Source of the DNA: an uncultured Bacteroidia bacterium
Lineage (GTDB): Bacteria; Bacteroidota; Bacteroidia; Bacteroidales; ML635J-15
Length of the DNA: 46,220 nt
Direction of reading: 5' to 3'
Assembly (NCBI GenBank): GCA_902790405.1
Contig: CADARW010000001.1
Coordinates: 1-46,220, forward strand
Position 1 is the stretch's first letter; each line of letters begins with the position of its first letter. A model generated the notes under the pieces. The model worked only from the letters and a program-made list of their open reading frames with translations. It was not told where the DNA came from and did not search any database. Shown in pieces: positions 17,028-45,517 of this stretch. Position numbers and translations under genes: made by a program.

Positions 17028-20000
17028 TTATTCAACAACAATCTGCTCAACGTAAACCTTGTCGCCGCTGATGATTCTTATGAAGTAAGTGCCAGCATGT
17101 AGATTGTGGTTGAAGTTCATGGTTTCACCATCCATCACGTTGATGTCGCGAGTTTCAACAACAGCACCGCGAGCGTCGATGAGCTGGTAGGTTGCCTCTC
17201 CTTCGAAGTTGCTGAAGTCGATGCTGAAAGTACCATTATTGGGATTCGGATAAACTACCATATACCCAGCTTCGGACATATTAACCGAACTTATAAAGAC
17301 GAATGTTACAGCAAGAGTGTGGTTTGCATTTACAGGCTCGAATGTATATGTGAAAGATTGGTTTTCGGAGAATTCTCCGCTTACCTCAACTTCTTCGTCA
17401 TCAATAGTAAGTGTTCCTATAATATACCTGTCTCCATTTGTTGTAGTATAACCGACGATTTCGAATGATGGAGTTGCTCCTTCCTGCACCGTAACAGTTT
17501 CATTGTCTTGTAGTTCTGTGCCATTGTAAGTTACAGAGCCATATTCCTCTTTTCTAATAGTAATAGTATAGGTAGGTATTGCTTCGAAGGTTGCTGCAAT
17601 AGTGTGGTTTGCATTTACGTTTGTGAAAGTGTAAACACCATCGACAAGCTGGTCAATTGCTTCAGCACCGTCGACCATGACACTTGCTAGACGATAGTCG
17701 GCGTTGGCTGTAATTGTAAACGACTGGCTTGTAGTTTCGTAAACGGTCACATTTCCCGACGGGGTGATGGTTCCGCCATCGCCAGCTGTTGCTGTGATAG
17801 TGTATCCAAACGGCAAAGTGGTGAATGTGTTTACGGCAGTCCAATTGTCGTCGTCGCTGCCACATACGCCATTAATCTGGTAGTAATATGTAGTATTCGA
17901 TGGCAATCCTGTCAATTCGAAGGGCGGAGTGGCAGAAGTAACCTCTGTCCAATCGAGAGTTTCTATTGTAGCCACAACCGCAATATCATCCAAATTGAAA
18001 TAGAACATGTTTGAACTGTTGAAATGGCGTATTGCAACATAAACCGTCTGTCCGGCGTATGCGGTAAGGTCGGTGTTCTTTTCGCCCCACGCGCCCTGGG
18101 TTCTGTGAGTGCCACCTGCAGCATTCAAATCCTCTTCCCACAGCAATGTGAAAGCGTCGAGGTCGGTTGTGGTGGTTGAAATGTAAACGCCATAATGTTC
18201 GCTAGGATATGCCACGTCCTGAACGTTCACATAGAATCTGAAATTGATGCTTTCGGCATTTTCGGGCAATGCGACAGCGGGAGTAATAAGCCAGTTGTCG
18301 GGAGTAAGCGTACCTGCCGTAAAATCGAAACTTTGCGAAGAGAGCATATCGCTACCGCTATGTGCCACATAACCCGACATCAACTCCGACGACAGTCCCC
18401 AGGTGAATCCGGCGCCATCGGCATCAACAATAGTCCATTCGTCCGAAATGCCGTTTTCGAAACTTTCCGACAACAAAGTCTGTGTTCTGGAATCTCTGTA
18501 ACGCAAGACATAGCTGTCGCTGGCTCCTGTCCATGTTATACTAGCAGAGTTAACTGTAGTTACCACATTGAGATTTGACGGTTGCGGGCATTCTGCGACA
18601 GTAGTAAATGTGTTTATTTCTGACCAGTTGTCGTTGATATTGCCACAAATTCCGTTAACCTGATATTCGTAGGTAGCTCCTGGTGTCAATTCAGCCAAGT
18701 CAACAAGAGTATACGTTGCCGTTAGCACAGTCCATACACTATTATATTCTACATTTATACTGAATTCGTCAATATTCAAAAAGAACATATCATAGCAATT
18801 GAAATGGCGGATTGCGATATATACGGTCCGTCCTGCGTATGCGGTAAGATCGGTATTCTTTTCGCCCCATGCGCCAGGAACTCCTCTGTGAGAACCGCCC
18901 TCGGCAGTCATATTTTCCTCCCACAGCAATGTGAATGCAGCCGTATCAACCGTAGTTGTCGAAATATAAACTCCATAGTGATCTTCGGCAAACTCAGAAT
19001 CCTGAGCATTTGCATAAAACTTAAGATTAATGTTTTCTACTCCCTGCGGCAATGCGACAGCAGGAGTTATTATCCAGTTGTCTGGACTAAGAGCTCCAGC
19101 CGAAAAATCGTAACTTCCAGAAGTAATACAATCACTTCCACCATAACCACCGGAAGTCTCCCCCCAAGTGTATCCGTCACCGTCTGAGTCAATATTTGTC
19201 CATCCTTCCGGAATGCCATTTTCGAATCCCTCAGAGAATATAACCTGCTGGGGCTCTGATATTTCTCTTCTGTATCTTATTTCATAACTTTCGTTATTAC
19301 CAGTCCAACTAATAGTCGCAGTGTTTTCCGACACATCGTTTGCCCGCAAATCTGCAGGGACTCTACAATACGAACAGCTTACAATATATGTTACGGCAGA
19401 CGACATTGTCCCTGAACCCGAAAATATCTCCTCTTCGTTTGTCCCATATACGACATAAGAACATTCGTTATCATAACTGCCAGAAACCCAGCTAAATGCT
19501 AATTCCATGCCGCTTTGAACTGGAAAATAAACAATATTAACCTCGTTCTCACCTGAGCCAGAAATACCATTTAGGTTCTGGTTAGTAACCGTTCCCAAAA
19601 CCTCCCCCGTTGCAACATTTGTTATGCTAATAGCAGCGCCATTCCAACTATCGCCATAGCTATCGGTAAGTTCGAAACGTATTTTGCACAAATCCTCATA
19701 AGTTTCAAAAGAAACTGCCTCAGACCACTTACTTATGCCATTTTCTCCGCCGCAAACTGCACGCACCTTTACCGAATAAGAAGTAGCCTCGTCCAAACCG
19801 CTCAATACATACTGATTTGTATTTACATCTATAAGATTGTCCTCATCATCGTTTATACAAATCTGCCAAGAAGTTTCGTCAGAACCAGGAGTCCATGATA
19901 CTACAGCAGAACGATCGGTCACATTAGAAACATTCAAATCGGTAGGATCATGGCAAAGACCTGCATCTATTACCATAAAATTATTCAACTTAATTTCATA

Positions 20001-21302
20001 GGGAGTCGGATTTTCTCCTCGTATTATAATGTAGCATGGACCTGTTGATATAGGAATATTCACCTCGTAGGTGTACCAACCTGTACTAGTTTCAGCGGGG
20101 ATTATTCCGCTTGCTGCACTATATTGAACACTAGCAAAAGCCAATTCTGTAGCGCCCTCTATTTGTCCATCAACACTTGCAAAAATTCTGACACCTCCTT
20201 CTGGCATATAAAAATTGGTACGATATATAGCAAAAACGAACTTATGAAATACACCCCCGAAATTCATTTCTGGAAGGACTAGTTTTACCATATTTCCGCT
20301 TGCCATAGTGTGCAAATACAACAGGTGATAATATATCTCGAAAACATATGAATAATACCCCAATATATGCTCGTTAACCCAGCACGGTGCAGTAAAGTTA
20401 CCATTATCATATGAGTCGAAATTCTCTTCCCATGGAAAAGTTGTAATTAAACAACTTGAAGTTCTAAAAGTCGTCTTTTGCCAACTGCTTTCATCGCCTT
20501 CGCTGCAAACAGCCTTTACATAAACATCGTATGAAGTATTATCGGCAAGTCCTGTTAAACTATATGTTGGTTCTGTGAGTTCAACCGATGTGCCTTCAGT
20601 TGCGACATTAAAACCAGAAAGGCCGTACTTTAGAACCCATGCAGTCTCTTCTCCACCAGCAGTCCATGATAGTGTTGCGCTAGTGTAACCCACATTGCTT
20701 ACAGCAAGTTCTGTAGGCTTTGTACATGATCCGTCGTATGTAAAAGTTGTCTTGGGGATAAAGTTTCTTTGATTAGGTGCCACGCCTTCCAATGAGGAAT
20801 AAGAATATCCCTGTATGCTAGATCCATCAACTGTTGTTCCCAAAAAAGAAACACTCTTATAATTTCCCGTTGCTGTTTGATAAAAACCAACCAACAAATT
20901 GCCTCCCTGATAAACATAATTCTCGGAAAAATCAACAGTCATTGTACTTCCTGTACCATCAAGTGTTCCTGTATAAACAATAGTTGCATTTTCAGTGCCA
21001 CTATATGCACTTAGCGTAGTTGCATCTACTTCTTTCAAAAACACCTGAAAAGTACCTGTCCATGCCTCCGCTGCTGGAGAGCTCAAATAGAACTCCATTC
21101 CTGAAATAGTTCCACCGTTCATTTCGTCCAAGTCTGAAGACGGGATAACAAATTCAGCTTTCAAGTAGGCATCGCAGTAAAAACCATAAACAGGCACATG
21201 ATTGCTTGTCTCCGTTCCATCGTAAACCGTCAAGGTTTCCTGTGCGGCAGCTCCAATTGCCATCGCAAGCAACAATAAGATATTTAATATCAGCTTCCTC
21301 AT
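17028..21302 (-). CDS. Large T9SS-secreted modular surface protein 1 (Fn3, two cleaved-adhesin/choice-of-anchor-J-like domains, beta-sandwich repeats, type A CTD)
   Basis: Signal peptide; Fn3 (CTKPTELAVSNV..SATLSW); two FSEGFENGIP..W...D.DGDG..W..PDNW.ITP..YVAIRH domains; C-terminal VYPNPNNG..GTYFIRI..EQIVVE. Confidence 0.88.
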   Translation of the reverse strand: MRKLILNILLLLAMAIGAAAQETLTVYDGTETSNHVPVYGFYCDAYLKAEFVIPSSDLDEMNGGTISGMEFYLSSPAAEAWTGTFQVFLKEVDATTLSAYSGTENATIVYTGTLDGTGSTMTVDFSENYVYQGGNLLVGFYQTATGNYKSVSFLGTTVDGSSIQGYSYSSLEGVAPNQRNFIPKTTFTYDGSCTKPTELAVSNVGYTSATLSWTAGGEETAWVLKYGLSGFNVATEGTSVELTEPTYSLTGLADNTSYDVYVKAVCSEGDESSWQKTTFRTSSCLITTFPWEENFDSYDNGNFTAPCWVNEHILGYYSYVFEIYYHLLYLHTMASGNMVKLVLPEMNFGGVFHKFVFAIYRTNFYMPEGGVRIFASVDGQIEGATELAFASVQYSAASGIIPAETSTGWYTYEVNIPISTGPCYIIIRGENPTPYEIKLNNFMVIDAGLCHDPTDLNVSNVTDRSAVVSWTPGSDETSWQICINDDEDNLIDVNTNQYVLSGLDEATSYSVKVRAVCGGENGISKWSEAVSFETYEDLCKIRFELTDSYGDSWNGAAISITNVATGEVLGTVTNQNLNGISGSGENEVNIVYFPVQSGMELAFSWVSGSYDNECSYVVYGTNEEEIFSGSGTMSSAVTYIVSCSYCRVPADLRANDVSENTATISWTGNNESYEIRYRREISEPQQVIFSEGFENGIPEGWTNIDSDGDGYTWGETSGGYGGSDCITSGSYDFSAGALSPDNWIITPAVALPQGVENINLKFYANAQDSEFAEDHYGVYISTTTVDTAAFTLLWEENMTAEGGSHRGVPGAWGEKNTDLTAYAGRTVYIAIRHFNCYDMFFLNIDEFSINVEYNSVWTVLTATYTLVDLAELTPGATYEYQVNGICGNINDNWSEINTFTTVAECPQPSNLNVVTTVNSASITWTGASDSYVLRYRDSRTQTLLSESFENGISDEWTIVDADGAGFTWGLSSELMSGYVAHSGSDMLSSQSFDFTAGTLTPDNWLITPAVALPENAESINFRFYVNVQDVAYPSEHYGVYISTTTTDLDAFTLLWEEDLNAAGGTHRTQGAWGEKNTDLTAYAGQTVYVAIRHFNSSNMFYFNLDDIAVVATIETLDWTEVTSATPPFELTGLPSNTTYYYQINGVCGSDDDNWTAVNTFTTLPFGYTITATAGDGGTITPSGNVTVYETTSQSFTITANADYRLASVMVDGAEAIDQLVDGVYTFTNVNANHTIAATFEAIPTYTITIRKEEYGSVTYNGTELQDNETVTVQEGATPSFEIVGYTTTNGDRYIIGTLTIDDEEVEVSGEFSENQSFTYTFEPVNANHTLAVTFVFISSVNMSEAGYMVVYPNPNNGTFSIDFSNFEGEATYQLIDARGAVVETRDINVMDGETMNFNHNLHAGTYFIRIISGDKVYVEQIVVE

Positions 21303-21344
21303 TTTTTACGCCCCCTGTTATATGCCATCGGGGGCTTCGGCTTT
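21303..21344 (-). promoter_or_regulatory. Conserved 5'-UTR motif, copy 1
   Basis: AAAGCCGAAGCCCCCGATGGCATATAACAGGGGGCGTAAAAA directly before the ATG. Confidence 0.75.
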
Positions 21345-21405
21345 ACGAATTCCAATTTAGTTACGACTAAAAAATATTTTCCTCATATATATTTTTTAGT
21401 CAGCG

Positions 21406-21413
21406 CAAAAATA
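21406..21413 (-). promoter_or_regulatory. -7 promoter box TATTTTTG of adhesin gene 1
   Basis: TAnnTTTG ~105 bp upstream of the ATG, at an equivalent position in all three paralogs. Confidence 0.6.
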
Positions 21414-21475
21414 ATGTTTATTTGTGTATATATGAAATATTTGTAACAAAAAAATGGGATATGTGTATATTTTAT

Positions 21476-21505
21476 TGTAGAGACGTAATGCATTACGTCT
21501 CTACA
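21476..21505. repeat. GTAG-type REP-like palindrome, copy 2 (perfect 30 bp)
   Basis: TGTAGAGACGTAATG|CATTACGTCTCTACA. Confidence 0.8.
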
Positions 21506-21509
21506 TAAC

Positions 21510-21538
21510 AAAAAAAGGCCGCCGTTAGGCAGCCTTTG
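21510..21538 (-). terminator. Intrinsic terminator of adhesin gene 2
   Basis: AAAGGCCGCC-GTTA-GGCAGCCTTT (one G-U pair on the minus strand) with T-run. Confidence 0.8.
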
Positions 21539-21559
21539 CTATTTACGATGTGTTTTTGA

Positions 21560-24500
21560 TTATTCAACAACAATCTGCTCAACGTAAACCTTGTCGCCGG
21601 TGATGATTCTTACGAAGTAAGTACCAGCATCGAGGTTGTGGTTAAAGTTCATTGTTGCACCATTTGCAACGTTGATGTCAAGGGTTTCGATGATAGCTCC
21701 GCGAGCGTCGATGAGCTGGTAGGTTGCATCACCTTCGAAATTGCTGAAGTTTATGCTAAACATACCGTTGTTCGGGTTCGGGTAAACGCTCAATGCAGAG
21801 AGGGCGTTCTCTTCTACCGAGTTGGGGAAGAATGCTATCTTAACATGATGGTCTGCCTGTACATTCCGGAAAGAGATTTCATTTATTGCTGTGCTACCAA
21901 TAATACTGCCATCGATTTCCAACTGAGAAATATGATATCCTTCGTTAGGCATTACCTGTATTGTTATGTCGGAACCAGCAAGAACAGATGTATCCCTTGG
22001 CGTTGCATCACCGCCTGCTGTTTGAAGCTCAACATGGACATTGTAGTAAGTCCTTATATCCTTATATTTGACAGTTATTGTGTAATTTTCCGAAATATTG
22101 GTAAGCGAATACACATTGTTTGTTATATAGCCAGTTCCTTCAACAGGATATTTAATCAAACCGTTTACTCTTACAGTATCCAAAGCGTATCCCTCGTCAG
22201 GAATAAAAGTAACATCATAATTGGAACCTTCGTTAACAGTGATTTCTCCGTCGGGATCCATTGTTCCGTGGCCACCGATTACTGTTCCTGTGATTGTGTA
22301 GGTAACAGCAGGAATTTCTTCGAATGTTACGTCAATTGTATGGTCTGCTGTTACATTTTCGAATGTGTAGAAGAAAACGCCATCACCAGCGACAATAGAT
22401 TCAGTGACATTAGCAGCATCAACCGTTACGCTTGCTACGCGGTAGCCACCATCAGGAGTGATTGAGAATATCTGGTCTTCGCCATCTGTTACATCTACAT
22501 TTCCACTCGGAGAAATAATTCCATGTTCACCTGCACTTGCTACGATTGTATGGGTAACTGGTATCAGTTCAAACGTTACCGAAAGAGTATGAGCTGCCGT
22601 AACTGGCTCGAATGTGTAGGTATAACCGCCCAACTGTACCGGCGTAAGATCTATAGCATTTTCATCTACTGTGAGAACTGCTATCTGGTAATTTGTAGCA
22701 GGTGTGATTACAAATTCCGGAGTATCACCTTCATATACTGCTACATGATCGGAAGCCAATACGTCGTTATAATAAACGTTACCATTTTCGCCAACTTCTA
22801 CTGTTATTAAATAGGTAGGAATTTCTTCGAATGTTACGTCAATTGTATGGTCTGCTGTTACATTTTCGAATGTATATAAGAATACGCCATCACCAGCAAC
22901 AAGACTTTCGGCAACATTATTTGTTGCATCAACCATTACGCTTGCTATTCTGTAGCCGCCATTAGCTACAATTGTGAATTCGGCATCTTCACCTTCGTAA
23001 ACTGTTAATTCGGCAGGGCTGATTGTACCATTTTCACCAGCAGTTGCTGTTATTGTGTACGATGGCAATAAAACATTGAAGTTATCGACAATGAAAGAAT
23101 AATGATCAGCCTCCGATTCGCACTTGATACCAATGTAAATATCCTGTCCTGCATATTCAGAAAGGTCGATGTCAGTTATCGACACGAATTCATCATTATT
23201 TACAATCTGTGTTGCAAGAATCTGTGTTGCAGTTTCGTAGTTTTCCGGATCATCCATTACATATACCGAGAATCTTTCCGAAATAGTAGTAGAGTTTACG
23301 GCATAATCGAATGTCAGAAACGCATTTTCAACTATTGCAATCTTAGGAGAAATCAACCAGTCGTTGGCATCATTAAATGAATCGAAATTATAATATGCTG
23401 ATTCTCCATTACCAGTAATCATATTATCATAACTCCAAGTGGTATTATCATCATTTGCATCCACTATAGTCCAGCATTGTCTTGATCCCGAAACTTCTTC
23501 GAATGTCTCGACAAATGGGAGACGATATGCAGAACTGCCGCATTCTGTAATAAAGAAGGTTTCGTACCAATCATCGGTGCTACAATTAGGCTGAAGGTAC
23601 ACAAAGTAAGTTGTGGCGGCCGTCAATCCGGTAAGATCAACGTTAATCTCGTCACCATTAACAGCAATCGTTCCGTCATATACATCGGCTTCTGCATCCA
23701 TATCTGTCATTTCGGTTGTAGAAACCTTCAGGAGGTAAGATGTTTCCGTATAAATCCTATACCATGCCAAAGATGCAGTTGTAGCTGTTATATTGTCAAT
23801 ATCAATGTAATATGGCATAATACAAGCATTCGGGTCGTTGATGATTGTTACAGTCCAGTTGGCAGTACTTTCGCCATCTTCGGCTACAACAGTATATACA
23901 ACCGGTGCGTTGAAATATTGATCCGTACCGCTTTCGGGGCTGATGGTAGCCATTGGCGAAACCTCGATATTCGGTATTATAGGATTTATGAGGTCGTAAT
24001 CCCATTCCGCATACGCTAAGACGGTTTTATTTTCTGTATCTATTACCGACTCTCCTACCTGATTGTCGAATGTGAACGAAACAATATCGTTAGCGGTACT
24101 TGCAGATTCTGCCTTTGTAACAACAACAGTCCAGTCCTTGGTGGTTGTCCTATCTTCTGCTGTAACGGTGTATGTATATGTTTTTTCATTGTCTAATATG
24201 GTTGCACTATTCTCGACATAAATAGCATCAACCGAAAGAGCAAGACTTTCGGCAAGGTTTTCAAGGTCTGTCCGATACGAAGCGATTGCAGTAACCGTTG
24301 CATTTTCGCTGTCGATTAGAGGAGCGGCCATACGTGTTGGGAATCTGAAATCAACAATTTCTGCATCGTGGAGTGCATCACGAAGTTCAAAGTTATCCAA
24401 GAACAAATACCATCCATCAATACCGCCCTGAGGAACATGAATAGCGACATATACTATTCCGTGATAATCTGGCAATGGAATATTTTTTCTCTGAAATGAT

Positions 24501-25744
24501 GTATTGTTAACCGTTTCAAGGGGCTGCAGTACCACTGTAAAATCTTCAATACTTGATGATGTTGTGGAAAGAAGGACCTCGTAGTCATTGGGTTCGTCTG
24601 CGCTTTCAACGCGCACATCGAAACTAAATCCATAGTTACCGTCAAGCTCAAAGGGAGGAAGTATGAGGTAGTCGTCATTGTTTCCATCATTATAATCTGT
24701 ATAAATAGCAGCCTGAATATTATCCGGATTATAATTGTCTATATACCAATAATCGTCATCTTGATTATTATTAATAATCGACCAGCAGTCTGGGAAATTT
24801 AAATCTGGCAAAGAATCAAAGTCTTCTGTCCATGGGAAATCAGCAATTGGTTCGCATTCTGTTTCAAATGTAAGCATTCTCATTCCGCTTTCGTTATCAT
24901 CTCCACAAACAGCCATTACATATACATCATATAAAGTCCTTGTCTCAAGGCCTTCCAATGTATAGCTTGTACTTGTCAGTTCCACGGTAGTACCTTCGGT
25001 TTCTATATCAAACCCATGAGTTCCATACTTGAGCACCCATGTGGATTCGCTACCAATCGGCCTCCACGAAGCATTTGCAGTTGAAGAAGTAACATTGTTA
25101 ACAGCAAGTTTTCTAACCTTCGGACATGCAGGATTTTCTTCTACATCAATAACGAGTCTAATATCGCTATGTCCCCTGAAAACCTCCTTATTTCCACCAA
25201 ACGATGACAAATCGTCAATGTTAGGAACATCAGTATCACTATAATAGGTAATTGCCGTGTATCCACTAGTTGTTGTATAATAAAATTTATAATTCGACCC
25301 AGGATAATCAAAAATCGGATCGTATATGCATACAATAAGATTGTCTGTACCATTGTAATAAAATTCATCATCGAGGTTAATAGTCATCCAACCGACATCA
25401 GAAGCTGCAAAGTCGCCAGAGTACACCAATGTGGCATCTGTTAAAGGAACTATATCACCATAATAACTAAACGAGCTCTTACTCGTAGTCATCATGTATA
25501 TCTTAATATTTGACAGGTTGAAAGAATTAACGAAATCATAATAGTAACTGATGGAGGTAATTGTTCCTGCCACACCAATTTCTTCTGCAGTATAAATCTG
25601 CTCCGTAAGCGAATAATTGTAAAACATGTTTACAGGAAAATAAAAGTCCGTTCCTGAACCATCACCAATCGTCACTTCTGTTTGTGCGACCGCTCCAAAT
25701 GCCATTGCCAGCAATAGGAGCACACTAAATAATAGTTTTTTCAT
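21560..25744 (-). CDS. Large T9SS-secreted modular surface protein 2 (Fn3, cleaved-adhesin-like, DUF5018/cadherin-like, beta-sandwich repeats, type A CTD)
   Basis: Signal peptide; Fn3; NDDYLILP and ANDWLISP adhesin-like domains; YTVTAED repeats; YTITATAGENGTISP..GYRIASV.VD repeats; CTD VYPNPNNG..EQIVVE. Confidence 0.88.
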   Translation of the reverse strand: MKKLLFSVLLLLAMAFGAVAQTEVTIGDGSGTDFYFPVNMFYNYSLTEQIYTAEEIGVAGTITSISYYYDFVNSFNLSNIKIYMMTTSKSSFSYYGDIVPLTDATLVYSGDFAASDVGWMTINLDDEFYYNGTDNLIVCIYDPIFDYPGSNYKFYYTTTSGYTAITYYSDTDVPNIDDLSSFGGNKEVFRGHSDIRLVIDVEENPACPKVRKLAVNNVTSSTANASWRPIGSESTWVLKYGTHGFDIETEGTTVELTSTSYTLEGLETRTLYDVYVMAVCGDDNESGMRMLTFETECEPIADFPWTEDFDSLPDLNFPDCWSIINNNQDDDYWYIDNYNPDNIQAAIYTDYNDGNNDDYLILPPFELDGNYGFSFDVRVESADEPNDYEVLLSTTSSSIEDFTVVLQPLETVNNTSFQRKNIPLPDYHGIVYVAIHVPQGGIDGWYLFLDNFELRDALHDAEIVDFRFPTRMAAPLIDSENATVTAIASYRTDLENLAESLALSVDAIYVENSATILDNEKTYTYTVTAEDRTTTKDWTVVVTKAESASTANDIVSFTFDNQVGESVIDTENKTVLAYAEWDYDLINPIIPNIEVSPMATISPESGTDQYFNAPVVYTVVAEDGESTANWTVTIINDPNACIMPYYIDIDNITATTASLAWYRIYTETSYLLKVSTTEMTDMDAEADVYDGTIAVNGDEINVDLTGLTAATTYFVYLQPNCSTDDWYETFFITECGSSAYRLPFVETFEEVSGSRQCWTIVDANDDNTTWSYDNMITGNGESAYYNFDSFNDANDWLISPKIAIVENAFLTFDYAVNSTTISERFSVYVMDDPENYETATQILATQIVNNDEFVSITDIDLSEYAGQDIYIGIKCESEADHYSFIVDNFNVLLPSYTITATAGENGTISPAELTVYEGEDAEFTIVANGGYRIASVMVDATNNVAESLVAGDGVFLYTFENVTADHTIDVTFEEIPTYLITVEVGENGNVYYNDVLASDHVAVYEGDTPEFVITPATNYQIAVLTVDENAIDLTPVQLGGYTYTFEPVTAAHTLSVTFELIPVTHTIVASAGEHGIISPSGNVDVTDGEDQIFSITPDGGYRVASVTVDAANVTESIVAGDGVFFYTFENVTADHTIDVTFEEIPAVTYTITGTVIGGHGTMDPDGEITVNEGSNYDVTFIPDEGYALDTVRVNGLIKYPVEGTGYITNNVYSLTNISENYTITVKYKDIRTYYNVHVELQTAGGDATPRDTSVLAGSDITIQVMPNEGYHISQLEIDGSIIGSTAINEISFRNVQADHHVKIAFFPNSVEENALSALSVYPNPNNGMFSINFSNFEGDATYQLIDARGAIIETLDINVANGATMNFNHNLDAGTYFVRIITGDKVYVEQIVVE
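22310..22873. repeat. 57-bp identical direct repeat inside adhesin 2 (22310-22366 and 22817-22873)
   Basis: AGGAATTTCTTCGAATGTTACGTCAATTGTATGGTCTGCTGTTACATTTTCGAATGT occurs twice, encoding TFENVTADHTIDVTFEEIP. Confidence 0.9.
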
Positions 25745-25786
25745 ATTCCAAACCTCCCGTTATATGCCATCGGACCCCTCGGCTTT
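25745..25786 (-). promoter_or_regulatory. Conserved 5'-UTR motif, copy 2
   Basis: AAAGCCGAGGGGTCCGATGGCATATAACGGGAGGTTTGGAAT before the ATG. Confidence 0.75.
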
Positions 25787-25849
25787 AAAAAACCTCAATT
25801 AATTACAAACTAAAAAATATATAAACCTCATATATTATATTTCGGGCTA

Positions 25850-25857
25850 CAAAAGTA
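25850..25857 (-). promoter_or_regulatory. -7 promoter box TACTTTTG of adhesin gene 2
   Basis: TAnnTTTG consensus ~105 bp upstream of the ATG. Confidence 0.6.
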
Positions 25858-25929
25858 AACGTTTTTTTCTGAAAGAAAAACTCTTTTTCTGATTTTATGG
25901 ATGTACAGGAAAAGAAGAAAACGAAAATG

Positions 25930-26012
25930 CTTCGATACTTCGACAACACTTCGATTTCACTCAGTGCGACGGCTCAGTACGCCGCAGGCTCAGAGAGCGA
26001 AGCTCAGTGACC
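25930..26012. repeat. Degenerate CTTCGA.../GCTCAG repeat cluster
   Basis: Three CTTCGA units then five (G/A)CTCAG-like units in a GC-rich patch within AT-rich intergenic DNA. Confidence 0.5.
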
Positions 26013-26078
26013 GGAAACCAGAACGGCGAAGCCATAAACGAAGTTAAACGTTGAACATTGGACTTTGAACCAGAAACA

Positions 26079-26109
26079 AAAAAAGGCCGCCCGAAAGCGA
26101 CCTTTTTTG
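26079..26109 (-). terminator. Intrinsic terminator of adhesin gene 3
   Basis: AAAAAAGGCCGC-CCGAAA-GCGACCTTTTTT. Confidence 0.8.
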
Positions 26110-26126
26110 TTTTTAATGTATGCTGA

Positions 26127-29100
26127 CTATTCAACAACAATCTGACCAACGTAAACCTTGTCGGCATTGATGATTCTTACGAAGTATGTGCCGGGAACGA
26201 GGTTATGGTTGAATGTCATTGTTTCACCGTTTGCAACGTTGATGTCGCGAGTTTCGATGATAGCACCGCGAGCATCGATAATCTGGTAGGTTGCATCACC
26301 TTCGATGTTGCTGAAGTCGATGCTGAACATACCGTTGTTCGGGTTCGGGTAAACCGACATCGAAGCGGCTTCATTCTCGTCAACAGAAACTGACGGTACG
26401 AATGTAACGCTAAGGGTATGGTCGGTTGACACAGAGGTGAAAGTATAAGTTTCTCCTGCAACATCACAATATATAGGATTACCGTCAATGTATATGGCTT
26501 CGATTTGATAACCATCGTCTGGAGCGATAGTAAATTCTGCATCGGCGCCATCACCTACGGTTACCACACCATTTTCACCACATGGGGTAACAGAACCGTG
26601 TTCACCAACTGTAAGAGTGATTGTGTGAGTTATTACTTCAATCTTGAAGTTGTCGATAAACAAGGACTCTTGATCTGCTTCAGATTCACACTTGATGCCT
26701 ATATAGATTTCCTGTCCGGCGTATGCTGTTAGATTGATGCTCGGAATAGTAGAAATAAATGAGCTGTTTGCTATTTGTGTAGAAAGAACCTGAGTTGCCG
26801 ATGCGTAGTTAGCAGGATTATCCATTACATAAACAGAGAACCTTTCTGGATAATCCCGTTCGCACCAGTATTCAAATGTTAAGTTCGCACCTTCAACAAT
26901 AGCAAGTTTTGGCGAGATCAACCAGTCGTTAGCATTATAATAGGAATAATTATATCTTGCTACTTCTTCGTAATAAATATAATCGTAATCGTAACTCCAT
27001 GTGTAATAATCATGATTGACATCAATAATATTCCAGCACTGTCTGGTAGCCGATGTCGCATCGAATGTTTCGATAAACGGAAGCGAATGTGCGGAACCAT
27101 CACATTCTGTCATGAAGAAAGTTTCTACCCATTCGTCTGTACCACAGTTAGACTGTACATATACATAGTATGAAGTTGATGCTGCCAGCTCGGTAAGATC
27201 AAGCTCAATCTCATCGCCAGCAAGAGCAACTTCGCCATCGTAAACATCGGCAGTTGCTGTCATGTCATCCATTTCGGTAGTAGAAACCTTTACATGGTAT
27301 GAAGTTTCGTTAAATGACGGTTCCCATTGCAAAGTTGCACTTGTCTCCTCAACATTGTAAACATTCAAATTAAATGGATTTACACATGCATTCGGGTCGG
27401 TAGTTATTGTGACTGTCCATGTTGCAACACTTTCGCCATCTTCGGCCGTAACCGTATATTGTACAGGCTCGTTGAATATCTGTGCAACACCGCTTTCCGG
27501 AGTAATAGTAGCCATTGGCGAAACGATTATTTCTGGACTAATATAATCATCAAGGTCGATATACCATTCTGCGTATGCTGTAACGGTCTTTGCTGTTGTG
27601 TCAATAATCGATTCTCCATGCTGACCATCGAATGTGAAAGAAAGAATATCGTTTGCAGTGCTTGCAGCCTCGGCCTTGGTTACGGTTACGGTCCAGTCCT
27701 TGGTAGTTGTTTCGTCTTCTGCAGTAACTGTATAAGTGTAAGTCTTTGTTGTTCCTGCAATGTTTGCTGTATTTTCTACGTATGTAGCATAGTCCGATAC
27801 AATAACAGTTTCTTCAAGATCATCAAAGTCTGCCTGATACGAAGCGACAACTGCAACGGTTGCATTTGCTGTGTCGATTACAGGAGCAGACATGCGGGTC
27901 GGGAAGTCGAAGTCAACGATTTCGGCTTCATCGGAAACATAACGTACAACAACATCGTCAACAAACCAATACCAATTATGTGAATTAGCCTTATGGTTGA
28001 ATGCAAAATAACTGCCAGCAGGAACCGATGACATATTTACAACCTTTCTCTCATGTTGGTTATCTGACCAATCATCGTATGAATATGTTTCTAATGTTGT
28101 AAATGTAGTTGCATCGTTAAGATCGGTGATATATCCTACCTCAAAAGTACCACAATTTGAATTAGTATAGCTCTCTGGTTTAGTATAGAAATCCAGCATT
28201 ATCGCCGATCCATTCGTTTCAAATTGCGGCAATGCAAGTATATTTCCGTTTGTTGTTCCACCAAATATTACAGAATTAGTACCTGTATTTCCGTTATAGT
28301 CAGTAATCATCGCATATCCGTCGCCGACTTTTGTCCAGCAAACTGGAGTCATAAATGGAAAATAATTTTCAAAACCTTCTTCATACGGCAATACGGAAAT
28401 TGGTTCACAAGCTGTCGTAAAATCAATGTATTCCCAATCCTCGGCATTTTCGCAGTTCGACTGGATATATACATAATACAATGTACCTGGTGTCAAACCT
28501 TCAATGTCCTTGGTTGTAGTATCAACAATTCCATCAAATACATCGGCGGTTAATGTCATGTCGCGCATGGATTCGGTTGACACTTTTATGCGGTACGAAG
28601 TTTCGATATATGCCTGTTCCCACAACACGGTTGCCGAATTAGTCGTAATATTTGAAACATATATATTCCATGGGGTTATACAAGCGTCGGGGTCGTTTAC
28701 TATTGTAACTGCGTAAGTGTGAGTAGTTTCTCCATCTTCTGCTGTTACCGTATAGTTAACCGGATTTGTGAAATCATGAGATGTCTCGCTTTCAGGGGTC
28801 ATAGTCGCAGCAACTGAAACTGTTACTGTTGGAGCAATGTCATAAAGTTCAAGATCCCATTCTGCAACTGCATTTACGGTATAAATGCCGTTTTCAGTGT
28901 CGCTAACGATTGTAGCCTCTGTTCCTTCCTTCTGACCGTAGAATGTAAATCCGGTAATGAAAGCGTTGTGGCTTACAGGAGCTCTCGTAACGGTAATCGT
29001 CCAATCCTTGGTATTTCCTGCTTCAGCGGTAACTGTGTATGCAAAAGTACGTACATTTCCTTCGCCCGTGATTGTCGGATCGCTGATTTCTGCAAAATCA

Positions 29101-30650
29101 GAAATTGTAATTTCCGGAACAAGTGCATCCATGTCGGTCGAATTTGCAACCGATACTGCAATAGTTCCGTTTCCGCTATTGATTGTAGCTTCTGACATCT
29201 GGGTAGGTAATGTAAATGTAAGAATCTCGGCTTCGCTATAAGCTTCACGAACAACAAAATTATCCATATATGTGCCACTTCCATACTGGCTTTCTCCTCT
29301 CAATATGATATAGCATGTTCCTGAGAAAGGAATTGTGAACGCGTATGTGTACCACCCGTAATCATCTTCCTCTGTCACTACGCCGCCATCGGATTGTGTA
29401 TAGTCACGCGATACGAATCCCAGCTCTGTAGCTCCTTCTATTTCTCCATCGGTACTTGCAAAAATTCGTATGCCTTCATTTGCATAACTGTCAGAATTTC
29501 GCAACACATCAATTGAGAATTTGTAAATGCCTTCGTCGGGTATTGTCATTCCCGGCAGAACCAGCTTGGTCAATGTCCCGCTTGTCATATTGGGCAGATA
29601 AATTAATCCTGTATTATTCGATTCATTACCGTACGGATATATCCAGAAAATACCAGAACCATAGCCTTCTAAGTGTTCGTTTTCCCAGCATGGAGCAGAA
29701 AAAGGGCCACTATCGTAGGTATTAAAATCTTCACTCCATGGGAAAGAAACAATTGCGTCACATTCTGTGCGGAATGTTACCCTTTTCCATCTGCTTTCGT
29801 CATCGTTACTGCAAACTGCCTTTACAAATACATCGTATGGAGTATTATCCGCAAGACCATTTATTGTATAGTTTGTACTTGTAAGTTCTACGGTAGTACC
29901 TTCGGTTTCAACATCAAAGCCATGAACACCATACTTGAGCACCCAAGCGGTTTCGCTGCCGCCAGGCATCCACGAAACATAGGCAGTCGAGGTAGTAATA
30001 TCGCTTACTGCAAGACTATTTACTTTATGGCATGAAGTACTTGCATTAGGATCAATCGTTAGCTTAATGTTGTTACGATAATTATATATATATTTATTTC
30101 CAGAATACGATGTCAAATTATCAAAATCGGGGCAATAAGTATCGCTGTAATAGCTAATTGACATATAATCGGTAGTTTCGGTGCATCTATATGTATAACT
30201 TGAACCAGGATAACCATAGATGTGATCATACATACAAACCAAAAGGTTGTCGTTGCCATTATAATAGAATTCGTCATCAAGTTCAATGGTTATCCAGCCT
30301 CTGCCAGCTGCACTGACATTGCCTTCATACACCAATGTAGTTCCTGTCATATCAACAATATCGGCATCAGATTCGAATGAATTTTTATCAATATTCATCA
30401 TGTACACCTTGATTCCTGGCAAGCTGAATGCATCAGTGTAATCATAATAGAAACTGATAGAGGTAATTGTTCCTGCCGAACCAATTTCTTCAGCCGTAAA
30501 AATCTGCTGATTAAGTGAATAATTGTACCACATGTTTATTGGCAAATGATAATACGAATCAGTACCATTGCCAATCGTCACTTCTGTCTGAGCGACCGCT
30601 CCAAATGCCATTGCTAGCAGTAGAAGCACACTAAATAATAGTTTTTTCAT
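26127..30650 (-). CDS. Large T9SS-secreted modular surface protein 3
   Basis: First 27 aa identical to protein 2; Fn3, adhesin-like and two pairs of YTVTAE(D/A) domains; CTD VYPNPNNG..GQIVVE. Confidence 0.88.
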   Translation of the reverse strand: MKKLLFSVLLLLAMAFGAVAQTEVTIGNGTDSYYHLPINMWYNYSLNQQIFTAEEIGSAGTITSISFYYDYTDAFSLPGIKVYMMNIDKNSFESDADIVDMTGTTLVYEGNVSAAGRGWITIELDDEFYYNGNDNLLVCMYDHIYGYPGSSYTYRCTETTDYMSISYYSDTYCPDFDNLTSYSGNKYIYNYRNNIKLTIDPNASTSCHKVNSLAVSDITTSTAYVSWMPGGSETAWVLKYGVHGFDVETEGTTVELTSTNYTINGLADNTPYDVFVKAVCSNDDESRWKRVTFRTECDAIVSFPWSEDFNTYDSGPFSAPCWENEHLEGYGSGIFWIYPYGNESNNTGLIYLPNMTSGTLTKLVLPGMTIPDEGIYKFSIDVLRNSDSYANEGIRIFASTDGEIEGATELGFVSRDYTQSDGGVVTEEDDYGWYTYAFTIPFSGTCYIILRGESQYGSGTYMDNFVVREAYSEAEILTFTLPTQMSEATINSGNGTIAVSVANSTDMDALVPEITISDFAEISDPTITGEGNVRTFAYTVTAEAGNTKDWTITVTRAPVSHNAFITGFTFYGQKEGTEATIVSDTENGIYTVNAVAEWDLELYDIAPTVTVSVAATMTPESETSHDFTNPVNYTVTAEDGETTHTYAVTIVNDPDACITPWNIYVSNITTNSATVLWEQAYIETSYRIKVSTESMRDMTLTADVFDGIVDTTTKDIEGLTPGTLYYVYIQSNCENAEDWEYIDFTTACEPISVLPYEEGFENYFPFMTPVCWTKVGDGYAMITDYNGNTGTNSVIFGGTTNGNILALPQFETNGSAIMLDFYTKPESYTNSNCGTFEVGYITDLNDATTFTTLETYSYDDWSDNQHERKVVNMSSVPAGSYFAFNHKANSHNWYWFVDDVVVRYVSDEAEIVDFDFPTRMSAPVIDTANATVAVVASYQADFDDLEETVIVSDYATYVENTANIAGTTKTYTYTVTAEDETTTKDWTVTVTKAEAASTANDILSFTFDGQHGESIIDTTAKTVTAYAEWYIDLDDYISPEIIVSPMATITPESGVAQIFNEPVQYTVTAEDGESVATWTVTITTDPNACVNPFNLNVYNVEETSATLQWEPSFNETSYHVKVSTTEMDDMTATADVYDGEVALAGDEIELDLTELAASTSYYVYVQSNCGTDEWVETFFMTECDGSAHSLPFIETFDATSATRQCWNIIDVNHDYYTWSYDYDYIYYEEVARYNYSYYNANDWLISPKLAIVEGANLTFEYWCERDYPERFSVYVMDNPANYASATQVLSTQIANSSFISTIPSINLTAYAGQEIYIGIKCESEADQESLFIDNFKIEVITHTITLTVGEHGSVTPCGENGVVTVGDGADAEFTIAPDDGYQIEAIYIDGNPIYCDVAGETYTFTSVSTDHTLSVTFVPSVSVDENEAASMSVYPNPNNGMFSIDFSNIEGDATYQIIDARGAIIETRDINVANGETMTFNHNLVPGTYFVRIINADKVYVGQIVVE

Positions 30651-30692
30651 ATTTCAAACCTCCCGTTATATGCCATCGGATCCCTCGGCTTT
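30651..30692 (-). promoter_or_regulatory. Conserved 5'-UTR motif, copy 3
   Basis: AAAGCCGAGGGATCCGATGGCATATAACGGGAGGTTTGAAAT before the ATG. Confidence 0.75.
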
Positions 30693-30751
30693 AAAATCAA
30701 ACAATCCAAATTTAATTTAATTACCTCAAATACAATCTTGAAGCAAGCGCA

Positions 30752-30759
30752 CAAAGGTA
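30752..30759 (-). promoter_or_regulatory. -7 promoter box TACCTTTG of adhesin gene 3
   Basis: TAnnTTTG consensus ~102 bp upstream of the ATG. Confidence 0.6.
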
Positions 30760-42909: not shown

Positions 42910-43413
42910 CTATAGACCGAGAGAGTTGTTGGTTTCGGTTGACTCGAAATACTCATCTACGAGCAGGTTGGCGCCAGTGGCGGCGGCAACGGCAAGCTGG
43001 TCGCAACGGTTGTTGTATGGATTGTCGGCGTGGCCTTTTACCCAGACGAACTTTACGTTGTGTTGCTTGTATATACGAACAAATCTTGACCATAAGTCGG
43101 GATTCTTAACCTTGTTGAACCCTTTTTTTATCCAGCCATAAATCCAGTTTTGGTTTATTGCGTCGGCAACGTATTTGGAATCGGTGTAGATTGTAACGTT
43201 CGAATTTGGAATTTTCAGCATTTCGAGGGCAGTGATGACACCGAGCAGTTCCATGCGGTTGTTGGTGGTACGGCGGAATCCGCAGGCTACATCCTTACGG
43301 AATTTTCCGCTCATGAGTACGATTCCGTATCCGCCTGGACCAGGATTTCCGCGCGATGAGCCATCGGTGTAGATTGTTATTGTAGGCGGTGTAGCCGTTT
43401 TTTCTTCTGCCAT
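42910..43413 (-). CDS. rnhA: Ribonuclease HI
   Basis: IYTDGSSRGNPGPGG, TTNNRMEL, YTDSKY, KNPDLW, WVKGHA, N.RCDQLA. Confidence 0.96.
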   Translation of the reverse strand: MAEEKTATPPTITIYTDGSSRGNPGPGGYGIVLMSGKFRKDVACGFRRTTNNRMELLGVITALEMLKIPNSNVTIYTDSKYVADAINQNWIYGWIKKGFNKVKNPDLWSRFVRIYKQHNVKFVWVKGHADNPYNNRCDQLAVAAATGANLLVDEYFESTETNNSLGL

Positions 43414-45398
43414 TACCTTGCAATAAGAACCTTTTCGGTTACGCTGTGTCCGTCGATGTTCATCTTTATGAAATACAAGCCTTCGCTGTAGTCGCTTACG
43501 TTCAGCTCGATGCTGCCTTCACTGCTGTTGGTGTTTTGTGTAGCGACTTTGCGACCGAGCATGTCGTAGATGTCGATGGTTATGTCCTTGCCATATTCAA
43601 CGGTGCCAAGGTTGATGTTGACAATGCTGCTGGCTGGGTTAGGGTAGATGCTTATATCGTGGTCGGCAGCATAGTCCTCGATGTCGACGATGCAAGTTAC
43701 GGGGCGTATTGCTGTTGACGTTCTGATTCCGAACTTCTCGAAAGCGGTTAGCCATTCGTCTCCACTCTTCACATACAAGGTGTTGGAGCCAGATTCGCTT
43801 CTATTTGGGGCAATGCTTACTACAAACCAGTCGCCTTCGCCATTTTGGTTAGTTCCGTTGTAGTTTATTTTGTATCCTGCATAGAAAGGACCATCGATGA
43901 TTGCAGGGTCGTCGAATTCGACAACGTAGTTGTAATTTTCGGGAATGTCGCGCAGGTAAATTTTCTTTTCGGCAAGAATAGATTCGGGAGTCTGTGTGTT
44001 TCCGTCCCAGATGTAGAACGTTACATACGAATTGTAAGTGCCTGCTTGCGATTTGAAAACAGGGACAATTATTGCGTCAACCCTCTCGAAAGAATATTGG
44101 TTAAATTTGTCGGCGTAAACTTTGGTTCTCTGTCCGTTGTGTCCGCCTACGAATCCCCATGAACCGCTAACTAGCGGGTTGCTAGGAATTTCGTTTGGAC
44201 GAATGTTTGATATTGTGTCGCAGTATTGAGGCACAGGTCCCGAGAATACCATTATATAGTCTTCCTTTGTAATCGATGTTACACCGCATTCGTTTGAAAC
44301 AGAGTGGAAAACATCGTAGAAACCTGCTGCGTTGTATTCGATACCATTAATAATATTGGCTGTTGCGGCGGTGGTTGGATAACCTCCTTCAAATTCCCAT
44401 GCCCATGCAGTCGGGTTATTTGTTGATAGGTCTTCGAAGTAAACTCTTGTGCCTGAGCGGATAAGACGTGGTGTAGCCTTGAAGTCGGCTTCGGGGATTG
44501 CCACGCATGGGTCGGTATTGGCAACGGTGATATAGTTTTCGCGGCGTAAAGTATCGAGTCCCAAGCTACTTTCGATAACGAGTTCAACATCGTAGGTGCC
44601 TGGCATAGGGAACATAATTCCAGTTGGGTTTTGTACGTTTGATGTTGTTGGAACAGCGCCTTCGAAGAACCAGTGCCAGATGTATGGCGTTCCGAGGCTT
44701 CGATCGGTGAAGTTGATGGCATCGCCTGGAGCAATGTATGTCCTGTCGGCCATAAAGTTGGCTTCGGGACGTGTGGTTGCTTCGGGAACAACGTTGATAT
44801 AGAAGTTTTTCGTTTCGGTGTCACTGTTGCCGTTCATGTCGGTAACGGTAAGTTCGACGTTGTACTGTCCCGCATGCGGATAGGTGATAGGCGTTGGGCG
44901 TTCATCTGTCGATGTCGATGGCATACCGCCTTCGAACGACCACTGGTATGTTACGAACGGTCCGTTTTGCGACAGGCTTGTGAACTGCACTATGCTATTT
45001 TCGGGAATTGTCGTAAAGTTGGCGGTGAAATCGGCAATTGGCGTTTCGGTGTTTGGAAGCACTGTGATGCACTCGGGTATAACTTCGGTGTTGACCATTG
45101 CTCCGTTCTGAACTTCAAGGATTACCGAATATGTGCCTGGGTAGTAGTAGCATATATTTTGTGGGTGCTGTTCGTTTGATGTTGTTGTTTGTGCACCTTC
45201 GAATGTCCACTGCCAGTGAGTTGGGTTGCCAGTAGTCATGTCGGTGAAGTAAACGCATTCGCCAGCGGTTATTTCGTACGAAGAAACGAGAAACTGTGCG
45301 TCGAGTCCAGCTCTGTCTTTGCCTTTTTGCGAGAATGCGTTGACGGACAGCACTACGAGTGCTATTATTATTGCCGTGATTTTCAGTATGTTTTTCAT
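43413..45398 (-). CDS. T9SS-secreted protein with four PKD domains
   Basis: Four F.D.S...PT.W.W.FEGG/A...G.Y.V.L repeats; CTD IYPNPAS..GLYFIK..KVLIAR; signal peptide from ATG 45398. Confidence 0.88.
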   Translation of the reverse strand: MKNILKITAIIIALVVLSVNAFSQKGKDRAGLDAQFLVSSYEITAGECVYFTDMTTGNPTHWQWTFEGAQTTTSNEQHPQNICYYYPGTYSVILEVQNGAMVNTEVIPECITVLPNTETPIADFTANFTTIPENSIVQFTSLSQNGPFVTYQWSFEGGMPSTSTDERPTPITYPHAGQYNVELTVTDMNGNSDTETKNFYINVVPEATTRPEANFMADRTYIAPGDAINFTDRSLGTPYIWHWFFEGAVPTTSNVQNPTGIMFPMPGTYDVELVIESSLGLDTLRRENYITVANTDPCVAIPEADFKATPRLIRSGTRVYFEDLSTNNPTAWAWEFEGGYPTTAATANIINGIEYNAAGFYDVFHSVSNECGVTSITKEDYIMVFSGPVPQYCDTISNIRPNEIPSNPLVSGSWGFVGGHNGQRTKVYADKFNQYSFERVDAIIVPVFKSQAGTYNSYVTFYIWDGNTQTPESILAEKKIYLRDIPENYNYVVEFDDPAIIDGPFYAGYKINYNGTNQNGEGDWFVVSIAPNRSESGSNTLYVKSGDEWLTAFEKFGIRTSTAIRPVTCIVDIEDYAADHDISIYPNPASSIVNINLGTVEYGKDITIDIYDMLGRKVATQNTNSSEGSIELNVSDYSEGLYFIKMNIDGHSVTEKVLIAR

Positions 45399-45517
45399 TT
45401 GAGCCAATTTTGATGATGAAACATAAAATATCAATTTGCAAATATAAAATTTAATTTGGAAATCGAGATGGGTTTTAAGAAAAAAAGAAAATTGCGTATG
45501 CGTTGCAGTATATAATG

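Follow-up and report, generated by a model that had tools for sequence, protein, structure and literature searches.

The window examined in this study is a 46,220-nt contig stretch (CADARW010000001.1) from an uncultured Bacteroidia bacterium, in which a short conserved motif lies directly upstream of three minus-strand genes encoding large type IX secretion system (T9SS) cargo proteins. Gene 1 (17028-21302, with its ATG at 21302-21300) encodes a protein of 1424 aa with fn3, Por_Secre_tail and two Cleaved_Adhesin domains. Gene 2 (21560-25744; 1394 aa; fn3, DUF5018, Flg_new_2 and Por_Secre_tail) and gene 3 (26127-30650; 1507 aa; fn3, DUF5018 and Por_Secre_tail) also encode T9SS cargo. A pattern search of the window for AAAGCCGA-N5-CCGATGGCATATAAC returned minus-strand sites at 21317-21344, 25759-25786 and 30665-30692, each with 0 mismatches, against a chance expectation of 0.00 in 100 dinucleotide shuffles. 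The invariant blocks described in the initial annotation of this locus were thus recovered at all three sites, together with the identical distance to the start codon that it had reported (14 nt from AAC to ATG in 3/3 copies); its ranges (21303-21344, 25745-25786 and 30651-30692) start at the initial A of AAAG and stop one base short of each ATG. The same search found no motif copy before a fourth T9SS cargo gene of the window (43413-45434, minus strand, sorting domain 71.5 bits). The description of the motif as preceding "all three T9SS adhesin genes" therefore fits the three large Por_Secre_tail genes and misses this fourth one.

The covariance model R1, built from 30 sequences, placed 44-nt footprints on the minus strand at 21305-21348 (copy 1, 54.8 bits), 25747-25790 (copy 2, 59.3 bits) and 30653-30696 (copy 3, 61.0 bits). 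Copy 1 consists of an invariant CC (21340-21339), the 5′ strand of a stem, P2 (21333-21330, extending to 21335 in this copy), the loop AUGG-C-AUAUAAC (21328-21317, with its GG at 21326-21325) and the 3′ strand of P2 (21315-21312). The corresponding parts of copy 2 are CC at 25782-25781, UCC at 25774-25772, the loop at 25770-25759 and GGA at 25757-25755; those of copy 3 are CC at 30688-30687, UCC at 30680-30678, the loop at 30676-30665 and GGA at 30663-30661. The variable blocks read as originally quoted, and the exchange in P2 between C-G (gene 1) and U-A (genes 2 and 3) is real. In a three-way alignment, conservation was higher in the motif block than in the preceding part of the leader, in agreement with the original remark on neighbouring DNA. 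The three leaders and signal peptides aligned over their whole length, indicating that the three genes are paralogues. Given this paralogy, the window alone could not exclude a relic of gene duplication; the wider data presented below do.

Matches to TAnnTTTG, the -7 box consensus of Bacteroides promoters, were found on the minus strand at 21406-21413 (gene 1), 25850-25857 (gene 2) and 30752-30759 (gene 3), ending 65, 67 and 63 nt before CCGA, respectively. As proposed in the initial annotation, the motif therefore lies downstream of the -7 box, inside a leader of roughly 95 nt. Across the family, the box was located upstream, with its end 20-34 nt or 44-69 nt from CCGA. Judged by this arrangement, the motif is a strand-specific element on the transcribed side of a putative 5′ untranslated region (5′UTR), downstream of the -7 box. 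One contig assembled from a sheep-gut RNA library spans 30586-30736, including the gene 3 motif, and ends near the expected start. Assembled contigs show neither the start nor the level of a transcript and such libraries may contain DNA, so that this contig lends weak support to transcription. Three metatranscriptome runs held 6% of the sampled words, and their contigs covered parts of the genes and, once, the gene 3 motif.

Compensatory changes support stem P2

The consensus reads AAA-R-CCGA-N3-5-(P2 5′ strand)-R-AUGG-N-AUAUAAC-N-(P2 3′ strand), followed by 8-10 A/U-rich nt and the AUG, and about 20 bases are invariant in each motif. Among 138 matches in the family, a form shorter than that of the window was the commoner one: AAA-R-CCGA-N-G-N-(P2 5′ strand)-R-AUGG-N-AUAUAAC-N-(P2 3′ strand). 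The model-fitted alignment (A2) placed gaps poorly in this short variant. Pairing was therefore read from an anchor-based, gap-free alignment of 226 unique instances located by their invariant anchors, in which bases at equal distance k, counted back from AUGG and forward from AAC, were compared.

The three core pairs of P2 were standard in 204/226, 207/226 and 211/226 instances, with CG, GC, UA, AU, UG and GU all represented, and the fourth pair was CG in 80 instances, GC in 78, UA in 31, UG in 11, GU in 9 and AU in 2. In register, 91.7% of P2 cells were paired, compared with 45% when the strands were offset by +/-1 and 55.9 +/- 1.5% (maximum 60.5%) when partners were shuffled 1000 times. In total, 30 distinct fully paired 3-bp cores were found. 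The covariation score, computed on the first 150 of 188 unique 28-nt rows aligned without gaps, was 0.678; shuffled controls gave 0.213 +/- 0.016, with 0/500 reaching the observed value, and slid registers gave at most 0.109. The P2 stem put forward in the initial annotation was thus upheld in the larger alignment. P2 cells of the G-U type outnumbered those of the A-C type 34 to 8, indicating that the helix forms in the sense-strand RNA and not in DNA. On these comparative grounds, P2 is established as a helix of 3-5 bp closing an invariant 13-nt loop, R-AUGG-N-AUAUAAC, and the motif as a whole is very probably a genuine structured cis-acting 5′UTR RNA. Taken alone, P2 had a median energy of -0.8 kcal/mol, and its core appeared in the predicted minimum free energy structure of 121/210 leaders. 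Since the stem is predicted to be thermodynamically marginal, something more would have to hold it.

A flanking pair points to a pseudoknot

In the fold that we propose, the GG of the loop would pair back to the invariant CC of the 5′ CCGA to form a second stem, P1, yielding an H-type pseudoknot. P1 would comprise R-CC with GG-N; L1 would be 3 nt long, L3 would be the A/U-rich N-AUAUAAC-N, and nearly no linker would separate the 5′ strand of P2 from the 3′ strand of P1. Within the loop, U-G-G-N-A might adopt a T-loop-like turn offering GG to CC. The invariant AUG of the loop, for example at 21328-21326 (minus strand), would be partly sequestered by P1.

The P1 core, CC of CCGA with GG of the loop, is invariant, as is the adjoining G with U, and covariation cannot test a core that never varies. 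The pair flanking it, formed by the base before CCGA and the base after AUGG, was scored in 210 instances. When the 5′ base was G, C or U, 49/53 pairs were canonical (GC 33, GU 11, CG 4, UA 1); when it was A, 117 instances had G opposite, 29 had U, 9 had A and 2 had C. The mutual information of this pair (0.485 bit) was the highest of all non-adjacent, distinct column pairs outside P2, in a ranking that left out adjacent columns and one label pair naming the same position of the short form. Covariation of the flanking pair gives moderate support to the putative H-type pseudoknot. In the version initially annotated, the topology is plausible and its flanking pair covaries, but P1, given there as GCCG/UGGC, has a core that does not vary, and its outer position is most often A with G across the family instead of G-C.

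The motif is concentrated in one genus of gut Bacteroidales

The genome to which the window belongs (2.75 Mb, 229 contigs, 93.7% complete) contains 8 copies of the motif, 3 in the window and 1 each on contigs C6, C25, C96, C137 and C174. R1 matched at E<=0.01 in 20/57 genomes of the family, 19 of which belong to the genus of the window (18/38 other species plus the own genome), and 15 genomes of the family held 6-14 matches each. The scores of ribosomal protein bS21 were identical among these motif-rich genomes, which suggests that the 15 form one clade.

In an order-level sample of 151 genomes, strong matches outside the family were confined to family f3 (3 in G058 and 1 in G205). A weaker but well-formed match was present in family f89 (G144), and the four other weak matches lay within coding sequence and lacked the loop. 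When prokaryotes of every species, each represented by one genome, were scanned for the exact pattern, at least 120 stretches matched. The 80 stretches listed came mostly from gut samples (rumen, horse and others) and belonged to metagenome-assembled genomes (MAGs) of uncultured Bacteroidales, Paludibacteraceae or 'Prevotellaceae'; going by record titles, no credible copy listed stems from an isolate. Among these stretches, pattern matches in other phyla scored no more than 18.5 bits with R1, except at two loci. One of these, L215, is on a contig titled Candidatus Limiplasma sp. and combines a 27.4-bit motif copy with a Bacteroidetes-type -7 box and a lipoprotein gene; it is probably a misbinned Bacteroidales contig in a Firmicutes MAG. 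The other, L238 (25.6 bits), was rejected as a true copy since it lies inside coding sequence, and was judged a chance match. Among 2.9 million viral contigs, 3 pattern matches were found, of which 1 was credible (L353, 5718-5760, minus strand, 33 bits). There the motif precedes a protein without signal peptide, and the contig may be a prophage or a misclassified host fragment. On balance, we favour the view that the window sites are members of a hitherto undescribed, multi-copy 5′UTR RNA motif that occurs in Bacteroidales of the gut and rumen.

Downstream genes mostly encode exported proteins

Downstream genes were reduced to 63 representative proteins sharing <50% identity over their first 80 residues. 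Comparison with Pfam (E<=1e-4) identified 24 as large multidomain surface proteins of the T9SS-cargo type and 1 as TM2, leaving 38 without a family. The Pfam-less proteins are mostly 70-320 aa long and carry signal peptides or lipoprotein boxes; small Cys-rich lipoproteins recur among them, and one is a membrane protein specific to the clade. The N-terminus was of signal or membrane type in 58/63 downstream families, as compared with 45-49% of 1907 open reading frames (ORFs) of the genome, using a crude rule (12 consecutive uncharged N-terminal residues, 7 or more of them strongly hydrophobic) for which 1 of the 5 misses was due to a wrong start call (L167). Genes downstream of the motif are thus mostly genes for proteins predicted to be exported. 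Weak Redoxin matches in three T9SS cargo proteins were the only catalytic-type matches downstream, and no que-related family occurred among the 63 representatives.

The initial annotation had inferred co-regulation of an adhesin family, which did not hold. The own genome has 93 Por_Secre_tail matches (89 above the cut-off), 5/93 of which carry the motif, and 3/8 of its motif copies, like most copies in relatives, precede small lipoproteins or exported proteins without Pfam family and not T9SS cargo. The motif is therefore neither general to T9SS cargo nor limited to it. The search of the genome and of Bacteroidales MAGs that had been suggested, with T9SS cargo as the expected downstream genes, did find more copies, but many of them precede lipoproteins or small exported proteins. 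The framing as a T9SS adhesin regulator was too narrow; the structural idea was largely borne out.

We also noted a lipoprotein family of ~77-80 aa with a Cys-rich motif directly after the lipobox (L121, L130, L140, L148, L161, L186 and others). Together with Pfam-less exported families of 160 aa and 271 aa, it is among the commonest motif-bearing genes. The membrane-protein family of L127 was confined to the motif clade, weak partial matches aside, and provided no motif-free orthologues for comparison.

The motif replaces the A-rich tract upstream of the start codon

A start codon was assigned in 210/226 instances. The spacing between AAC and the start was 14 nt in 93 of these, 15 nt in 62, 13 nt in 21, 12 nt in 13 and 16 nt in 10, which places the 3′ strand of P2 at about -13 to -10. 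Initiation independent of a Shine-Dalgarno (SD) sequence is known for Bacteroidetes. In the own genome, SD-like words were no commoner at -18 to -5 of 1108 long ORFs (6.7%) than in a control window (7.2%), which shows a genome without recognisable SD signal, and A made up 51-57% of bases at -14 to -11. At motif genes, G accounted for 72, 56 and 37% of bases at -13 to -11 and was followed by an A/U-rich run up to the AUG. The 3′ strand of P2 reads GGAG only in the T9SS-type subfamily; elsewhere it is GGC, GAG, GAC or similar. An expression platform that sequesters an SD was thus not found, the genome making no use of SD sequences and the 3′ strand of P2 not being a fixed SD. The statement that this strand covers the translation initiation region holds in so far as it occupies the place of the -14 to -11 tract, in a genome that offers no SD to cover.

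By its position, the motif is a putative replacement of the usual A-rich upstream initiation tract by a paired, G-rich strand in strict register with the AUG. This register and the replaced A-tract are our main reason for placing the action of the motif at 30S binding, and we regard an effect on translation initiation as probable, with good confidence. Ribosome recruitment without SD sequences and post-transcriptional control are poorly understood in Bacteroidota. The motif offers a compact, sequence-defined handle on both, and the genes it precedes build the cell surface (T9SS adhesins, lipoproteins) of abundant rumen and hindgut Bacteroidales.

Comparison with known RNA families

No match to any of the 4227 models of Rfam 15 reached its gathering score in the whole window. 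These models include preQ1-I/II/III, SAM-II/V, guanidine-III, c-di-GMP and the lysM and M23 motifs. At E<=10, four of the eight own-genome loci (L001, L004, L005 and L006) gave 15 weak matches, none of which overlaps the motif. The initial judgement that the element is undescribed, and neither preQ1-I nor SAM-II, is in line with these results. A literature search, whose sources did not extend to the motif tables that supplement Weinberg et al. 2017 and later surveys, returned no description of the motif. With more than 200 unique examples, it constitutes an orphan RNA family.

The closest likeness in architecture is to preQ1-I (RF00522), which shares a length of ~35 nt, the H-type pseudoknot proposed here, a short L1, an A-rich L3 and a second stem whose 3′ strand adjoins the initiation region. 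The motif differs from it in having no RF00522 match at E<=10, no queuosine genes downstream, and a covarying P2 next to an invariant P1. SAM-II, SAM-V and guanidine-III are likewise small classical pseudoknots acting on translation initiation; unlike them, the motif serves exported proteins and not methionine or guanidine genes, and it has no Rfam match. Protein-binding operators, such as ribosomal-protein pseudoknots and RAT hairpins of the BglG type, act through a trans-acting protein. Like the motif, they combine conserved sequence with a short covarying helix and are sometimes repeated before several operons of one genome. For the motif, the search for a partner gave no candidate protein; RRM-type proteins are absent from the whole motif-rich clade and so are not the partner there. 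The lysM-Prevotella, lysM-Actino and M23 motifs of Weinberg et al. 2017 are orphan candidate structured 5′UTR RNAs before genes for exported cell-wall proteins, with no known ligand (PMC5737381). These motifs are in Rfam, yet none matches the element described here, whose genes lack LysM or M23 domains. From its predicted structure, the motif is a new RNA family of a well-known type, that of small leader elements resembling pseudoknots, and its comparative support is unusually clear.

Effector-dependent operator and alternative readings

We propose that the fold would act at translation initiation, with the 3′ strand of P2 sitting where other genes hold the A-rich tract. A trans-acting effector, either a protein or a small ligand, would recognise the invariant loop and the CCGA and stabilise an otherwise marginal fold, thereby changing 30S access. 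As to the effect on translation, we lean towards repression. Such an effector-dependent translational operator takes the largest share of our confidence, a little beyond an even balance; that the effector is a protein is a more tentative and rather doubtful proposition. That the fold is marginally stable, that few genes in each genome carry the motif and that phage contigs nearly lack it all favour a regulated operator. If a ligand or a protein is bound, the motif would define a new surface-protein regulon.

Several observations weigh against this interpretation. A single clade within one genus supplies most copies, so that the instances are not independent, and part of the invariance is a matter of ascertainment, many loci having been retrieved by patterns in which the invariant bases were fixed. 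The pseudoknot rests on a single flanking pair, the P1 core being invariant; the commonest state of that pair, A with G (117/210), is non-standard, and G-C occurs chiefly within the T9SS-type subfamily, so that relatedness may inflate the signal. The RNA evidence is a single assembled contig from a metatranscriptome library that is possibly contaminated with DNA. No transporter, enzyme or regulator indicating a ligand was found among the 63 downstream families. Finally, the very tight spacing to the AUG suits ribosome positioning at least as well as an occluding operator.

This last point leads to a constitutive pseudoknot that would dock the ribosome, taking over from the A-rich tract the placing of the 30S subunit on the AUG, with no ligand involved and with the P2 helix filling the space of an SD duplex. 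The spacing is indeed as tight as that of an SD (176/210 within 13-15 nt), and P2 has its 3′ end ~9 nt ahead of the start codon; the AUG and positions -9 to -1 are never sequestered, and motif genes lack the A-rich -14 to -11 signal of other genes. Tight spacing and missing A-tract favour this docking, and ~20 nt kept invariant across dozens of unrelated genes would fit a conserved ribosomal surface. Nevertheless, only ~8-14 genes per genome use the motif, and phages, which usually copy host initiation signals, provided 1 credible copy in 2.9 million viral contigs. The presence of bS21 both inside and outside the motif-rich clade gives no obvious sign of a clade-specific change of the ribosome. 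No 16S gene with which to compare the motif was found in G000 (searched with two primer-like words) or in G027 and G029 (searched with RF00177). We consider constitutive docking unlikely, and its most specific form, a bacterial IRES-like start signal for messages of exported proteins in which P2 and the loop would bind the 30S platform at a constant 9-10 nt from the AUG, is unlikely too. If the ribosome is what binds, the motif would be a new kind of bacterial initiation signal. A small-molecule riboswitch, which we hold to be about as improbable as docking, would be a 36-nt aptamer of preQ1-I-like size whose ligand closes P1 and P2 and thereby switches a surface-protein regulon. The highly conserved core around a short covarying stem, the pseudoknot topology with an A/U-rich L3, the position right beside the initiation region and the energetically marginal P2, which requires extra stabilisation, all speak for it. 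It accords poorly with the finding that 0/63 downstream families are transporters or biosynthetic enzymes, with the narrow taxonomic range and high copy number, and with the lack of a match to any known riboswitch model at E<=10. Were it true, the motif would represent a new 36-nt class for a signal governing the cell-surface proteome.

Two further explanations were weighed. According to the first, the leaders would resemble each other only because the adhesin genes are recent paralogues, and in the window they do align end to end with their signal peptides. The initial annotation had named such a passive relic as what would overturn its proposal. This was contradicted by the wider data: the motif precedes at least 63 families <50% identical over the first 80 residues, including unrelated lipoproteins and membrane proteins, and the 30 fully paired P2 cores show pairing kept by compensatory change and not by shared descent. 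A duplication relic was therefore rejected, and we give it practically no credence. A coding or DNA-level element, either an upstream ORF starting at the loop AUG (M-[AGV]-Y-N...) or a palindromic protein site in DNA, is highly improbable as well. The loop AUG is invariant, and in the three window genes it opens a 9-codon frame whose closing TGA overlaps the main ATG. Across 210 instances, however, its phase with respect to the main AUG is not conserved (101/77/32) and follows the spacing preference. The length varies from 4 codons upwards, 92/226 instances have no stop in the stretch read, and third codon positions are invariant where codon 2 varies at its second position, which is the reverse of what coding constraint would give. 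An upstream ORF or leader peptide was rejected because frame, length and codon-position pattern are not coding-like, and a DNA palindrome because G-U exceeds A-C 34 to 8 at the paired positions.

Candidate partners and additional leader features

RRM_1 matches numbered 0 in 15/15 motif-rich genomes of the genus and 1-2 in each of the remaining 23. In G058, which is not of this genus, the motif and an RRM protein occur together, and the absence of RRM proteins from motif-rich genomes is for this reason best explained by shared ancestry. As most simply a single-clade effect, it is uninformative on the partner, and an RRM-type partner was set aside. Loss of bS21 in the motif clade was not seen, 54/57 family genomes having bS21; the own genome gave a partial, sub-threshold match only (21.6 bits against a 27-bit cut-off). 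A search of the own genome for a perfectly complementary antisense or small RNA partner, which did not extend to partial complementarity, found none, full loop matches being the 8 sense copies only.

A hairpin is predicted near the 5′ end of the gene 1 leader (21366-21400, minus strand), with a counterpart at ~30721-30746 in gene 3. It lies a few bases 3′ of the -7 box in long leaders of the T9SS type, namely those of the window genes, including gene 2, and those of relatives L069, L071, L078, L085, L087, L098, L104 and L105. Its sequence varies from gene to gene and its self-complementarity is kept (CCAAAA/UUUUGG, GCUCAAGAA/UUUUUGAGC, CGUUAAGAA/UUUUUAACG). This hairpin belongs to the long-leader T9SS-type variant and not to the core motif; it may be a stabiliser of the 5′ end or a further part of the element. 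An extra conserved block was observed upstream of short-variant motif copies at L178, L189 and L204 and at L180, L182, L184 and L197. It consists of a terminator-like hairpin followed by a GC-rich stretch, and may represent another RNA element or a small mobile insertion.

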